Below, piece by piece: positions 49,193-57,558 of a stretch of 64,000 nt of DNA. The notes under the pieces were generated by a model. The model made no database searches. It saw only the letters and a list, made by a program, of their open reading frames with translations, and was not told the DNA's origin. This DNA comes from Escherichia coli. GTDB lineage: Bacteria; Pseudomonadota; Gammaproteobacteria; Enterobacterales; Enterobacteriaceae. Location of the stretch: the NCBI RefSeq assembly GCF_002854065.1, contig NZ_CP024147.1; one strand, written 5' to 3'. Position numbers and translations under genes: made by a program. Numbering within the stretch: the first letter of the stretch is position 1; every line of letters starts with the position of its first letter.

Positions 49193-51904
<2,712 letters not shown>

Positions 51905-51964
51905 GTTTGTATAGCGTTTTTATGTACACTCTTTATACTGTATATAAAATCGCACTACAGGCTC

Positions 51965-52249
51965 ATGAATATGAAACCGGAAAGCAAAGAAGCGCCAATC
52001 AATATCAGAGCGAAAGCCTCACAGCGTGACCTGATTGATATGGCAGCGAATCTGGTCGCAAAATCGCGCACTGATTTTATGCTGGATGCCGCATGCCGTG
52101 AAGCGCAAGACATCTTATTAGATCAACGACTATTCATCCTTGATGACGAGCAATACGATGCGTTTCTCGCTGCCCTGGACGCCCCCATCACTGCTGAGCG
52201 TCAGGCCAAAATTAACGCGTTGATGAATCGTAAATCGCCATGGGAATAA
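51965..52249 (+). CDS. DUF1778 (TacA/AtaR-like) ribbon-helix-helix antitoxin, 94 aa
   Basis: INIRAKASQRDLIDMAANLVAKSRTDFMLDAACREAQDILLDQRLF...DEQYDAFLAALDAP resembles the DUF1778 antitoxin family; stop overlaps the toxin start (ATGGGAATAA). Confidence 0.75.
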   Translation: MNMKPESKEAPINIRAKASQRDLIDMAANLVAKSRTDFMLDAACREAQDILLDQRLFILDDEQYDAFLAALDAPITAERQAKINALMNRKSPWE

Positions 52250-52725
52250 CGGCTCCTACTCCCCTAACGTCTGAACATAATCTGGCTGACTTTTGCTGTT
52301 CCGATCACGGGATGAATGAATGGCTAAAAAAGAAAGCATTAAAAAATCACAGCTCCGGTCTGTCTCGTGTTTACGTTATCTGTATTGCCAATACCCGCCA
52401 GGTAATCGGCTATTACTGCCTTTCTACAGGCAGTATTCAACGTAATTTGGCCCCTGGAGCCATGCGACGTAATGCTCCCGAATCGTTGCCTGTTGTCGTA
52501 TTAGGCAGACTGGCAATTGATCAAGCCTGAGCAGGTAAAGGGTTGGGCGTCGCATTGTTGAAAGATGCAGTCTATCGCACAATGTCCATAGCTCAACAGG
52601 TAGGGGTTCGTGCGCTCATTGTTCATGCCTTAGACGATTCAGTACGCAATTTCTATCTGAAGTATGCCTTTGTACCTTCACCATTCCAGTCACTTACCTT
52701 ACTGTATCCCATTACTCTGGAGTAA
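52240..52725 (+). pseudogene. GNAT-family acetyltransferase toxin (TacT/AtaT-like), 162 codons, broken by in-frame TGA at 52528..52530
   Basis: ORFs 52240..52530 and 52543..52725 share a frame; the stop falls in LGRLAIDQA*AGKGLGVALL, immediately before the GNAT acetyl-CoA-binding G-x-G motif. Confidence 0.75.
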
Positions 52726-52774
52726 TTTACCTCTACCGGATAGTCACACTGATGAGTCTGATCCGGGAGGGATT

Positions 52775-53806
<1,032 letters not shown>

Positions 53807-55033
53807 TTATCCTTTTACGCACACCACCTGACGCAGGGTGTAGATAACTTCCACCAGATCGCTTTGTGCCGCCATCACCGCATCAATATCTTTATACGCC
53901 ATCGGGATTTCGTCGATCACTTCGGCATCTTTACGGCATTCCACATGCGCGGTAGCACGAATTTGATCTTCCACGCTGAACAGTTTTTTCGCTTTAGTAC
54001 GGCTCATTACCCGCCCGGCACCGTGGCTGCATGAACAGAACGACTCTTCATTTCCCAGCCCACGGACGATAAAGCTTTTCGCTCCCATCGACCCTGGAAT
54101 AATTCCATATTGACCAGCACGCGCAGACACCGCGCCTTTACGCGTCACGTAGATCTCTTCACCAAAGTGCTGTTCTTTTTGCACATAGTTGTGGTGACAG
54201 TTGATCTCTTCCATCGCCAGCGTTTGTGGCTGTCTGACCGTTTTCTGCGTAATGCTCTGCAACGCCGTTACTACGTTTTCCATCATCGCATCGCGGTTAA
54301 GGCTGGCAAAAAGCTGCGCCCAGGCCACGGCTTTCAGGTAATCATCAAAGTATTCCGTACCTTCCATAAAGTACGCCAGATCACGCGACGGCAATGTTTC
54401 AAGCGTTTCCTGCATCTCTTTTTGCGCCAGATCGATAAAGTAAGTCCCGATGGCATTACCAATTCCGCGTGAACCGGAGTGCAGCATAATCCACACCTGG
54501 TCCGACTCATCAAGGCAGATTTCAATAAAGTGGTTACCCGTTCCCAGCGTTCCCAGGTGTTTATAGTTGTTAGTGTTAAGGAAACGCGGATATTTTTGCG
54601 TTAACCACTGATAACCGGCCTCCAGCTCAGCCCATTTCGCATCGACGTTAACAGGCGGGTTTTCCCATGCGCCTTTATCACGTTTACAACGTCCGGTAGT
54701 ACGCCCGTGCGGCACGGCCGTTTCAATCGCCTGACGCAGCTCCGCCAGGTTTTCAGGCAGATCTGCCGCCGTTAACGCGGTACGCAGCGCGTTCATTCCA
54801 CAGCCAATATCCACGCCCACCGCCGCCGGAATAATCGCCCCTTTGGTCGGGATCACGCTACCAATGGTGGAACCTTTACCCAGGTGTACATCAGGCATTA
54901 CCGCAATATGTTTGAAAATAAACGGCATCTTCGCCGTATTAATAAGTTGCTGACGCGCATCGGCTTCTACCGGCACGCCTTTGGTCCACATTTTTACCGG
55001 GGCATTTTCAGTGGTCAGTAATTCGTAATTCAT
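53807..55033 (-). CDS. rtcB: RNA-splicing ligase RtcB (408 aa)
   Basis: ORF 408 aa recognised. Confidence 0.95.
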   Translation of the reverse strand: MNYELLTTENAPVKMWTKGVPVEADARQQLINTAKMPFIFKHIAVMPDVHLGKGSTIGSVIPTKGAIIPAAVGVDIGCGMNALRTALTAADLPENLAELRQAIETAVPHGRTTGRCKRDKGAWENPPVNVDAKWAELEAGYQWLTQKYPRFLNTNNYKHLGTLGTGNHFIEICLDESDQVWIMLHSGSRGIGNAIGTYFIDLAQKEMQETLETLPSRDLAYFMEGTEYFDDYLKAVAWAQLFASLNRDAMMENVVTALQSITQKTVRQPQTLAMEEINCHHNYVQKEQHFGEEIYVTRKGAVSARAGQYGIIPGSMGAKSFIVRGLGNEESFCSCSHGAGRVMSRTKAKKLFSVEDQIRATAHVECRKDAEVIDEIPMAYKDIDAVMAAQSDLVEVIYTLRQVVCVKG

Positions 55034-55068
55034 TTTGTTTTTCTCTTTTCGTTGGTATGTCCTGATAA

Positions 55069-55085
55069 TTGCAACCGTCGTGCCA
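55069..55085 (-). promoter_or_regulatory. sigma54 promoter of rtcBA (minus strand TGGCAC-GACGG-TTGCA)
   Basis: Matches -24/-12 consensus TGGCAC-N5-TTGCA upstream of rtcB. Confidence 0.8.
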
Positions 55086-55219
55086 GAAAATTAAATAAGC
55101 AGATTAATTTTTTAATTCATTGTTTTAAAAAAGATTATATCTTTACGTCCGTAACCGGAGATTTCCCGCAAAGCCGATTTACCGATAATGAAATATCGTC
55201 TTTTATAAGGATATCTAAG

Positions 55220-56818
55220 ATGCGTAAAACAGTGGCTTTTGGCTTTGTCGGAACGGTGCTGGATTATGCCGGGCGCGGCAGTCAGCGCTGGTCGAAATGG
55301 CGTCCGACGCTTTGTTTATGCCAGCAAGAATCGTTGGTCATCGATCGACTGGAATTATTGCATGACGCCCGCTCGCGCTCGCTATTTGAAACGCTTAAAC
55401 GCGATATCGCCAGCGTTTCGCCAGAAACAGAAGTGGTGAGCGTTGAGATTGAACTGCATAACCCGTGGGATTTCGAAGAGGTTTACGCCTGCCTGCATGA
55501 TTTCGCCCGTGGTTACGAGTTTCAACCAGAAAAAGAAGACTATTTAATTCACATCACCACCGGCACCCACGTCGCGCAGATTTGCTGGTTTCTGCTGGCG
55601 GAAGCGCGTTATCTACCCGCCCGGTTGATACAATCTTCACCTCCGCGCAAAAAAGAACAACCGCGCGGCTCAGGTGAAGTGACGATTATCGATCTCGATC
55701 TAAGCCGTTATAACGCCATCGCCAGCCGCTTTGCCGAGGAACGCCAGCAAACGCTTGATTTTCTTAAGTCCGGCATTGCCACGCGTAACCCCCACTTCAA
55801 CCGCATGATTGAGCAGGTTGAAAAAGTGGCGATTAAATCCCGCGCACCGATCCTGCTTAACGGCCCGACCGGTGCGGGTAAGTCGTTTCTGGCACGACGC
55901 ATTTTCGAATTAAAACAGGCGCGGCATCAGTTTAGCGGCGCGTTTGTGGAAGTGAACTGCGCCACCTTGCGTGGCGATACCGCCATGTCGACGCTGTTTG
56001 GTCATGTAAAAGGCGCGTTTACCGGGGCGCGGGAATCCCGTGAAGGATTATTACGTAGCGCCAACGGTGGAATGTTGTTTCTTGATGAGATTGGCGAACT
56101 GGGCGCAGACGAACAGGCAATGCTGCTGAAAGCCATTGAAGAGAAAAACTTTTACCCGTTTGGCAGCGATCGCCAGGTGAGCAGTGATTTTCAGCTCATC
56201 GCCGGAACGGTGCGCGATTTACGCCAGCTGGTTGCCGATGGCAAATTCCGCGAAGATCTATACGCGCGGATCAATCTCTGGACCTTCACCCTGCCGGGGC
56301 TACGCCAGCGTCAGGAAGATATTGAACCTAACCTGGATTATGAAGTGGAGCGCCACGCTTCACTCACCGGCGACAGCGTGCGTTTTAACACCGAAGCGCG
56401 GCGCGCCTGGCTGGCCTTTGCGACATCTCCCCAGGCAACATGGCGCGGTAACTTTCGCGAGCTTTCTGCCAGCGTCACGCGAATGGCAACCTTTGCCTCT
56501 AGCGGACGCATTACTCTGGACGTGGTTGAAGATGAGATAAACCGTCTGCGCTATAACTGGCAGGAGAGCCGCCCCTCCGCGCTTACGGCGTTGCTGGGCG
56601 CAGAGGCAGAAAACATCGATCTCTTCGACCGTATGCAACTGGAACACGTTATCGCTATCTGCCGCCAGGCAAAGTCGCTTTCCGCAGCCGGACGCCAGCT
56701 TTTTGACGTTTCGCGCCAGGGCAAAGCCAGCGTCAATGACGCGGATCGGCTACGCAAATACCTGGCGCGTTTTGGTCTGACGTGGGAAGCATTGCAGGAT
56801 CAGCACAGCTCCAGTTGA
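55220..56818 (+). CDS. rtcR: RtcR, sigma54-dependent activator with N-terminal CARF-like domain (532 aa)
   Basis: Start [18 protein letters not shown]; AAA+ Walker A GPTGAGKS; ORF track over-extended by 56 codons. Confidence 0.93.
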
Positions 56819-57558
56819 ATATGGTGGTCCGTCAGCACCTGCATCACGCTTACTGGCGGCGGGGCGTCGGTGTAGACGGCATCTACCATGCTGATGCTGC
56901 CCATATTGACCATCGCGTTACGGCCAAATTTGGAGTGATCGACAACCAGCATAACGTGGCGCGAGTTCTCAATAATGGCGCGTTTGGTGCGAACTTCGTG
57001 GTAATCGAACTCCAGCAGCGAGCCGTCGCTATCGATGCCGCTTATCCCCAGAATGCCGAAATCAAGGCGGAACTGGGAGATAAAATCGAGCGTCGCTTCG
57101 CCAATGATCCCGCCATCGCGGCTGCGTAATTCGCCACCGGCGAGAATAATGCGGAAATCTTCTTTTACCATCAACGTGTTAGCAACATTGAGATTGTTGG
57201 TGACAATGCGCAAATTGCTGTGATTGAGCAGCGCGTGCGCCACCGCTTCCGGCGTGGTGCCGATATCGATAAACAGCGTCGAGCCGTTGGGGATTTGCTC
57301 CGCCACTTTACGGGCAATCCTCTCTTTTTCTTCGGTCTGGGTGGCTTTACGATCGTGCCACGGCGTGTTAACCGAACTGGAAGGCAGCGCCGCACCGCCA
57401 TGATGGCGCAGGATCAGGTTTTGCTCTGCCAGTTCGTTGAGGTCGCGGCGAATAGTCTGCGGGCTGACGGAGAAGTGCTCCACCAGCTCCTCGGTACTGA
57501 CATAACCCTGCTGTTTAACCAGTTCGATAATACCGTTGTGACGTTGTGTTTGTTTCAT
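56800..57558 (-). CDS. glpR: Glycerol-3-phosphate regulon repressor GlpR (DeoR family, 252 aa)
   Basis: Start MKQTQRHNGIIELVKQQGYVSTEEL. Confidence 0.95.
   Translation of the reverse strand: MKQTQRHNGIIELVKQQGYVSTEELVEHFSVSPQTIRRDLNELAEQNLILRHHGGAALPSSSVNTPWHDRKATQTEEKERIARKVAEQIPNGSTLFIDIGTTPEAVAHALLNHSNLRIVTNNLNVANTLMVKEDFRIILAGGELRSRDGGIIGEATLDFISQFRLDFGILGISGIDSDGSLLEFDYHEVRTKRAIIENSRHVMLVVDHSKFGRNAMVNMGSISMVDAVYTDAPPPVSVMQVLTDHHIQLELC

Follow-up and report, generated by a model that had tools for sequence, protein, structure and literature searches.

Where does the activator RtcR dock to switch on the RNA repair operon rtcBA of Escherichia coli? The Rtc system links tRNA and rRNA damage to transient tolerance of ribosome-targeting antibiotics, and the rtcR/rtcBA pair is reportedly known from Genschik et al. 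1998. To our knowledge, RtcR carries the best-studied CARF domain acting outside CRISPR. The enhancer of RtcR is given as 'NK' (not known) in the review of Hartman et al. 2016 (PMC4987338). In the available text of two further studies (PMC5175333, PMC9650030) an upstream activator sequence and an IHF site are mentioned, and their sequences are not given there. We analyzed this control region within a 64,000-nt stretch of E. coli DNA (contig NZ_CP024147.1, assembly GCF_002854065.1), called the window below.

The rtc locus in the window

By the coordinates of the open reading frames, positions 55034-55219 are exactly the 186-bp intergenic region between rtcB (ATG at 55033-55031, minus strand) and rtcR (ATG at 55220, plus strand). 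Gene order was taken from Pfam and PGAP annotation. On the plus strand malT (49199-51904) is followed by a toxin-antitoxin module, and then by rtcA and rtcB on the minus strand. The rtcA gene (52775-53806) encodes an RNA 3'-terminal phosphate cyclase (Pfam RTC, E 1.7e-80, and RTC_insert); PGAP places its start at 53803, which gives a protein of 342 aa. The rtcB gene (53807-55033) encodes an RNA 3'-phosphate/2',3'-cyclic phosphate ligase of 408 aa (Pfam RtcB, E 1.8e-133, in agreement with PGAP). Divergently oriented rtcR (55220-56818) encodes a sigma-54 activator of 532 aa, annotated by PGAP as RtcR, and beyond it lie glpR, glpG and glpE on the minus strand, and then glpD. All three Rtc proteins are intact. 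A scan of positions 51500-57500 against Rfam at E <= 1 returned zero matches, so that there was no known RNA family in or around the intergenic region.

The region is widespread in the species. Of 5426 complete E. coli genomes 4855 contained it, 4840 of them with at least 80% of its length. An 8,886-bp stretch differed from strain CUWW06 at 2 positions, and 261 bp around the intergenic region were 100% identical to the O157:H7 strain TR01. The earlier note on this DNA had called for a comparison with K-12. Over the aligned 261-263 bp the identity to a K-12 derivative was 98%, and the sigma-54 promoter, the IHF-like stretch and the inverted repeat described below were identical. The differences comprise two substitutions upstream as well as a 2-bp indel and three adjacent substitutions in the rtcB leader, which is 2 nt shorter than in K-12. 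The leader allele of the window, ACATACCAACG, is the one common to E. albertii and the cryptic clades.

Gene order also agrees with K-12 (malT...rtcA-rtcB/rtcR-glpR; Engl et al. 2016, PMC5175333; Kotta-Loizou et al. 2022, PMC9650030), except that the window has an additional AtaR2/AtaT2 module between malT and rtcA, with an altered 3' end of rtcA. The intergenic region is thus the divergent control region of the E. coli RNA repair locus, and its promoter, the activator and the neighboring toxin-antitoxin module have all been described before. This agrees with the earlier note, which had called the system a known one; it matches the described rtcR/rtcBA system of K-12.

A sigma-54 promoter upstream of rtcB

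The earlier note had also reported a sigma-54 promoter on the minus strand upstream of rtcB, and this promoter was recovered exactly. The -24/-12 element TGGCAC-GACGG-TTGCA (TGGCACGACGGTTGCA) occupies positions 55085-55070 with zero mismatches. Upon closer alignment both diagnostic dinucleotides were present, GG at 55084-55083 and GC at 55072-55071, exactly 10 bp apart. The minus strand around the promoter reads ...TTTTCTGGCACGACGGTTGCAATTATCAGGACATACC..., and the stretch containing TGGCAC-N5-TTGCA reads TTTTCTGGCACGACGGTTGCAATTATCAGGACATACCAACGAAAAGAGAAAAACAAAATG.

A match of this length could in principle arise by chance and have no promoter function. The exact pattern occurs once in the 64 kb; in 100 dinucleotide shuffles of the window it occurred on average 0.08 times, and 7 of the 100 shuffles held at least one exact match, which leaves some room for a fortuitous hit. 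When one mismatch was allowed the pattern was not rare (3 observed, 2.05 expected), and the evidential weight therefore lies on the exact match, its orientation, its position and its conservation. All of these speak against chance. The element has the correct orientation, its 3' end lies 36 nt ahead of the rtcB ATG, and the adjoining gene encodes a cognate AAA+ activator with a GAFTGA motif (RtcR; PF00158, E 1.2e-50). TGGCAC and TTGCA do not vary among 12 enterobacterial sequences or among 8 Escherichia sequences chosen across the identity range, and a GG-N10-GC element could be recognized in 24 of 25 loci at a comparable distance from rtcR. Finally, the element is identical to the experimentally studied promoter of K-12. 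We consider a chance match extremely improbable.

Published experiments are in line with a functional promoter. According to PMC5175333 and PMC9650030, expression of rtcBA from the identical K-12 promoter sequence needs sigma-54 and RtcR, and the former source reports that 175 nt upstream of the rtcB ATG are sufficient for regulated, RtcR-dependent expression. The homologous site of Salmonella, TGGCACGCTGGTTGCAAT, is bound by sigma-54 in vivo and drives sigma-54-dependent expression (PMC3844500). PMC9650030 describes native PrtcBA as primed with ApC at -1/+1 and reports a very low in vitro activity of the wild-type promoter. The transcription start of rtcBA was inferred at C 55059 (minus strand), preceded by A 55060, because this position lies at the usual distance of 12 nt from the C of the -12 element and because ApC fits A55060/C55059. 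This start would leave a leader of 26 nt to the rtcB ATG.

RtcR and its signal

The earlier note had described a divergent RtcR with an N-terminal CARF-like sensing domain, and the domain analysis confirmed this reading. The RtcR/CARF domain (PF06956) covers residues 2-185 of the plus-strand product (E 7.6e-86 in Pfam) and is followed by the Sigma54_activat domain (PF00158) at residues 187-354. The Walker A motif GPTGAGKS is located at residue 215 and the GAFTGA motif at residue 265. At the C-terminus no Pfam helix-turn-helix model matched at E <= 0.001; the C-terminal domain of RtcR is described as a helix-turn-helix in PMC7790460. A C-terminal segment ...AGRxLF.SR..K... is common to 24 RtcR orthologues, and its terminal helix, which is invariant or nearly so, is the putative recognition helix. 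Since this helix is near-invariant in the 24 proteins, a shared half-site in the DNA is to be expected.

Regarding the signal, the earlier note had stated that the ligand of RtcR is still debated, which holds in part. A ligand of the CARF domain has been described (Hughes et al., PMC7790460), and to this extent the statement does not stand. It does stand with respect to the proteins involved: both RtcA and RtcB bind to the CARF domain, and they are needed in vivo yet insufficient in vitro (Kotta-Loizou et al. 2022, PMC9650030). RtcR that lacks its CARF domain is constitutive (PMC5175333, PMC9650030).

A candidate RtcR enhancer next to rtcR

A search of the intergenic region for upstream activator sequences, as the earlier note had suggested, yielded a concrete candidate. 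Phylogenetic footprinting was carried out on 25 loci, comprising the window, 16 usable rtcR loci from a genome scan and 8 obtained via homologous proteins. All loci were read on the rtcB-sense strand, beginning at the start codon of rtcR, and rtcR was divergent from an rtcB-containing operon in all loci checked except Chitinolyticbacter L027, which had no rtcB within the fetched flank. Twelve enterobacterial sequences were aligned: five from Escherichia and one each from Klebsiella, Intestinirhabdus, Superficieibacter, Salmonella, Enterobacter, Phytobacter and one further genus. Only two islands were conserved in this alignment, CTGGCAC...TTGCA of the promoter and the 40 nt proximal to rtcR. 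The approximately 85 nt between them could not be aligned between genera.

Within the rtcR-proximal island lies a perfect inverted repeat, CGATA-N6-TATCG, at positions 55183-55198. It spans -124 to -139 relative to the inferred start, with its center at about -131.5, and it is the single exact match in the window. The palindrome was found with zero mismatches in all 12 enterobacterial loci and in the window (13 sequences), and per locus a score as high was reached by 0 to 1 of 2000 shuffles. In the enterobacterial loci 24-26 nt separate it from the rtcR ATG, and its distance to the -24 element is 111-113 bp. The arms are invariant and the spacer varies (TTTCAT, TTTAAT, AATAAT, ATTTAT, GTAAAT, TTAAAA). 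In Salmonella and Intestinirhabdus the arms are extended symmetrically to AAAGACGATA/TATCGTCTTT. Symmetric variants of the arms were also observed in Superficieibacter (GCGATA/TATCGC) and Ralstonia (CGATC-N6-GATCG). A generic repeat finder reported eight AT-rich inverted repeats, none of which was conserved across species; the 5-nt arms of the candidate are below the seed length of that program.

Outside the enterobacteria the exact palindrome does not hold as a universal motif. It fails in 9 of 13 non-enteric loci, and there only a looser enrichment of GATA/TATC was found. Over the 13 non-enteric loci, 34 such tetramers lie in the 60 nt adjoining rtcR compared to 4 in the remaining intergenic DNA. 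This 12-fold enrichment was reached by none of 5000 shuffles, and the preferred spacings were 10, 20 and 30 bp. With one mismatch the palindrome is present in Pseudomonas GD03944 and in Chitinolyticbacter, where in each case 7 of 2000 shuffles reached the score. The Pseudomonas GD03944 locus contains four half-sites at intervals of 10 bp (TATC-N6-GATA-N6-GATA-N6-TATC). Based on these comparisons of sequence, CGATA-N6-TATCG is proposed as the RtcR enhancer. It falls inside the 175-nt fragment for which PMC5175333 reports RtcR-dependent activation. No description of RtcR docking on the CGATA palindrome was found in the literature searched; Genschik et al. 1998 and Kurasz et al. 2018 may hold one.

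Could the 40-nt block next to rtcR be kept merely as the sigma-70 promoter, leader and ribosome-binding site of rtcR, with the RtcR enhancer lying elsewhere or being poorly conserved? The block runs unbroken to the Shine-Dalgarno sequence and the ATG. A probable ribosome-binding site, AAGGA at 55207-55211 (plus strand), is located 8 nt before the rtcR ATG in a block conserved across the Enterobacteriaceae, and it overlaps a weaker TATC half-site at 55210-55213. On the rtcR strand the distal arm of the palindrome and two bases of the spacer form the hexamer GATAAT (55184-55189), which is present in most enterobacteria. It is the best, yet weak, candidate for a possible rtcR -10 hexamer. Moreover, E. 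coli ATCC 25922, the one allele of lower identity that was inspected, has CGAGA-N6-TATCG, so that one arm is not strictly conserved within E. coli.

A -10 hexamer, however, leaves the second arm unexplained. It does not account for a fixed 6-bp spacer of free sequence, for the symmetric changes in Superficieibacter and Ralstonia, or for the constant 111-113 bp to the -24 element across DNA that cannot be aligned. The hexamer has no convincing -35 partner: the promoter scan detected no sigma-70 promoter for rtcR, and a lenient scan gave only weak candidates, namely GATAAT at 55184 with TTTCCC, and TATAAG at 55204. The RNA fold of the stretch was no better than that of shuffled sequences either (z = +0.87). 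An explanation of the block solely by rtcR expression signals is therefore rather unlikely, in our estimation, though it deserves to be taken seriously; the position of the palindrome in a possible rtcR promoter or leader could explain part of its conservation.

Two other readings of the repeat were rejected. As a hairpin in the rtcR leader RNA of E. coli the palindrome would fold with -4.2 kcal/mol, no better than shuffled sequences. A likeness to a Fur box (GATAATGA...) was dropped by eye, as the spacing of the half-sites is unsuitable. For the 10-nt arms of Salmonella and Intestinirhabdus an RNA hairpin may still apply.

A second block in the intergenic region was considered as well. On the rtcB-sense strand positions 55146-55167 read GGGAAATCTCCGGTTACGGACG and contain TCCG-N4-CGGA, with the center at about -94.5. 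This block, in place of the CGATA palindrome, could be the E. coli RtcR enhancer. Amid variable flanks, its core AAATCTCCG(G/T)TTACGGAC is kept in E. coli, E. albertii, E. whittamii and the cryptic clades, and the position of the block (-87 to -108) is also typical of enhancers. The block is not conserved in the other genera aligned (Salmonella, Klebsiella, Enterobacter and others), despite an identical recognition helix of RtcR in these organisms, and no related motif was detected in the other 17 loci. It is thus an improbable enhancer, considerably more so than an origin of the rtcR-adjoining block in rtcR expression signals alone. We retain the CGATA palindrome as the candidate site.

Between the palindrome and the promoter an IHF-like site, AATTAAAAAATTA, was found at 55105-55117 (minus strand; about -46 to -58), with one mismatch to the consensus WATCAANNNNTTR. 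A second, overlapping match with one mismatch is located at 55113-55125. The window contains 69 matches with one mismatch, compared to 49 expected, and the E. coli site is not significant alone. Comparison between species adds to this. Ten of the 25 loci contain the perfect consensus WATCAANNNNTTR, in every case on the same strand and with 30-45 bp between it and the -24 element downstream, and the E. coli site shares alignment columns with the perfect consensus of Salmonella, Superficieibacter and Entero_P0039. An 'rtc IHF binding site' is mentioned in the available text of PMC9650030, where no sequence is given.

A decayed toxin-antitoxin module beside rtcA

The earlier note had placed a toxin-antitoxin insertion at the 3' end of the operon. 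The module indeed adjoins rtcA and is absent from K-12. It is located on the opposite strand, convergent with rtcA, and has a promoter-like site of its own (TGTACA-16-TAAAAT, 51923-51950) ahead of the antitoxin gene; thus it lies beside the operon and is not part of it. No canonical terminator was predicted in the 49 nt between the stop codons of the toxin gene and rtcA. The module has taken the place of the K-12 malT-rtcA spacer together with the final codons of rtcA. Alignment placed the junction of the insertion at about 52798, which is why the C-terminal end of RtcA differs from K-12. Of 5426 genomes 394 contained the module at this site, and most of these were O157:H7, O55:H7 or their relatives.

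The antitoxin gene (51971-52249, plus strand) is of the ataR2 type (DUF1778/TacA family; Pfam TacA1, E 9.7e-20; PGAP) and is intact in the window. It overlaps by 10 nt with an ataT2-type GNAT toxin gene (52240-52725, plus strand), which is a pseudogene carrying W97* (TGG to TGA at 52528-52530). The same toxin gene is annotated by PGAP as an 'internal stop' pseudogene in strain CUWW06. The intact toxin of strain TR01, from the same locus, matched PDB 7f37_B over all 161 residues (E 9.5e-107) and contains Y139. AtaT2 is the Gly-tRNA(Gly) acetyltransferase of O157:H7 Sakai (ECs4261-ECs4262) with the catalytic residue Y139 (Ovchinnikov et al. 2020, PMC7470980). The Sakai AtaR2/AtaT2 pair has a toxin of the same family and likewise a DUF1778 antitoxin, and its ECs tags fit the malT-rtcA position; in contrast to Sakai AtaT2, the toxin in the window carries W97*. 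As W97* truncates the toxin before Y139, the toxin should be inactive in this strain. The locus is a decayed member of the DUF1778-GNAT (TacAT/AtaRT) type II modules.

Discussion

Taken together, the intergenic region is very probably a divergent control region with a sigma-54 promoter reading into rtcBA, RtcR as the cognate CARF activator, a candidate enhancer with an IHF-like site and, as a separate unit, the AtaR2/AtaT2 module. According to the literature, sigma-54 holoenzyme rests on the -24/-12 element as a closed complex, and the CARF domain keeps RtcR inactive. RtcR is freed by a signal that is tied to tRNA damage, with fragments ending in a 2',3'-cyclic phosphate and with RtcA and RtcB binding to the CARF domain. 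It then oligomerizes and opens the promoter at the expense of ATP. To this published scheme our comparisons would add that RtcR docks on CGATA-N6-TATCG (55183-55198), about 130 bp upstream of the start, and that the AT-rich stretch with the IHF-like site (55105-55117), when bent by IHF, may loop RtcR onto the polymerase. Like PspF, RtcR bound at this site would probably also lower its own expression. Autoregulation is proposed because the repeat overlaps both the possible rtcR -10 hexamer (GATAAT) and the rtcR leader.

The pspF/pspABCDE locus of E. coli combines a divergent activator gene with a sigma-54 operon, and an IHF site lies between enhancer and promoter. There the enhancer overlaps the activator's own promoter and causes negative autoregulation, and the activator is subject to feedback from operon products. 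PspF is cited as an analogue of RtcR in PMC9650030. Unlike RtcR, PspF lacks a sensor domain; its activity is under the control of PspA. For RtcR the corresponding overlap between enhancer and promoter is putative.

A close counterpart outside Escherichia is the rsr-yrlBA-rtcBA operon of S. Typhimurium (PMC7790460, PMC9879122, PMC3844500), with the same activator, the same divergent layout and the same -24/-12 element (TGGCACG-N4-GTTGCAAT). The Salmonella enterica locus that was fetched contains the same palindrome at the same offset. The S. Typhimurium operon begins with rsr and Y RNAs, which the window lacks. At its 3' end the type II toxin-antitoxin module dinJ-yafQ is co-transcribed from the sigma-54 promoter, whereas the module in the window belongs to another family and is convergent. 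A toxin-antitoxin neighbor of rtc is thus not unique to the window. In S. Typhimurium 14028s, activation depends on the SOS response and on Gifsy-1 genes.

How far the reading of the palindrome can be extended is a matter of balance. We would give roughly even chances to the whole proposal that it is the RtcR enhancer, that RtcR sites are in general GATA/TATC half-sites arranged on one face of the helix, that RtcR autoregulates, and that arm variants such as the CGAGA of ATCC 25922 tune inducibility between lineages; it has been drawn from sequence comparison. The only addition made here to a known system is a precise and cheaply testable candidate for the RtcR site, together with its natural variant in ATCC 25922. 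A defined RtcR site would allow clean enhancer mutants and in vitro assays of the activation step.

Variation in the rtcB-rtcR intergenic region

A natural variant of the candidate RtcR enhancer, the inverted repeat CGATA-N6-TATCG, is found in E. coli ATCC 25922 (locus L031). There the sequence reads CGAGA-N6-TATCG, with one arm mutated at the position equivalent to window 55195. Matches H16-H18, whose level of identity resembles that of the ATCC 25922 match, may share this variant. Within window 55146-55167 of the same region lies a 19-nt core, AAATCTCCG(G/T)TTACGGAC in the rtcB sense, that includes the palindrome TCCG-N4-CGGA. This core is kept in Escherichia species although its flanks diverge, and was not found in the other genera compared.

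Operon starts in other genera

ARAGORN and Rfam tRNA matches show that the sigma-54 promoter is closely followed by a tRNA-like gene or element in Chitinolyticbacter (L027 1119-1190), Pseudomonas GD03944 (L012 2065-2210) and Accumulibacter (L011 1781-1853); here and below, positions are local to each rtc locus. Probably, these elements are RNAs of the tRNA-like or Y-RNA type that RNA-repair operons are known to carry. Unlike these three loci, E. coli has no tRNA-like element downstream of its sigma-54 promoter. A gene encoding a zf_Tbcl domain separates rtcB from the sigma-54 promoter in Ralstonia (L026 865-1128) and Niveibacterium (L030 699-1457). The first operon gene is Ro60/TROVE (rsr) in Enterobacter and Phytobacter, and probably also in Klebsiella, Intestinirhabdus and Superficieibacter. 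In E. coli and in a Salmonella enterica locus (L023), rtcB itself is the first gene.

Genes flanking the rtc locus

On the plus strand, rtcR converges with glpR on the minus strand, and the 3' ends of the two genes share 19 nt (window 56800-56818), an overlap that is also present in an annotated K-12-type genome. Between malT and rtcA, the AtaT2-type GNAT toxin gene (window 52240-52725) carries a TGG to TGA change in codon 97, creating a stop at 52528-52530; the adjacent antitoxin gene (window 51971-52249) is intact. The annotation of strain CUWW06 flags the identical internal stop. In TR01 and F8492, the remaining strains with inspected annotation, the toxin is intact. Immediately upstream of the antitoxin gene, window 51923-51960 contains the promoter-like TGTACA-16-TAAAAT, in which the palindrome TATAC-T-GTATA is embedded. 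This site is likely an operator through which the AtaR2-AtaT2 complex would autoregulate.

Damage to and loss of rtc loci in E. coli

In E. coli O157:H7 F8492 (L004 2809-4034), rtcB is called frameshifted by the annotation. At nt 1051 a run of six A (A6) is directly followed by a 1-nt deletion, which would cut the ligase to about 350 residues; this deletion may be typical of O157:H7 or may be a homopolymer sequencing error. Two IS1 copies interrupt the rtc locus of E. coli LB858871 (L035 1151-3958), where the rtcB gene is split and both rtcR and a large part of the glp cluster are absent. Across the complete E. coli genomes, 571 of 5426 gave no match to the rtcB-rtcR intergenic region, and loss of the rtc system is therefore not rare.
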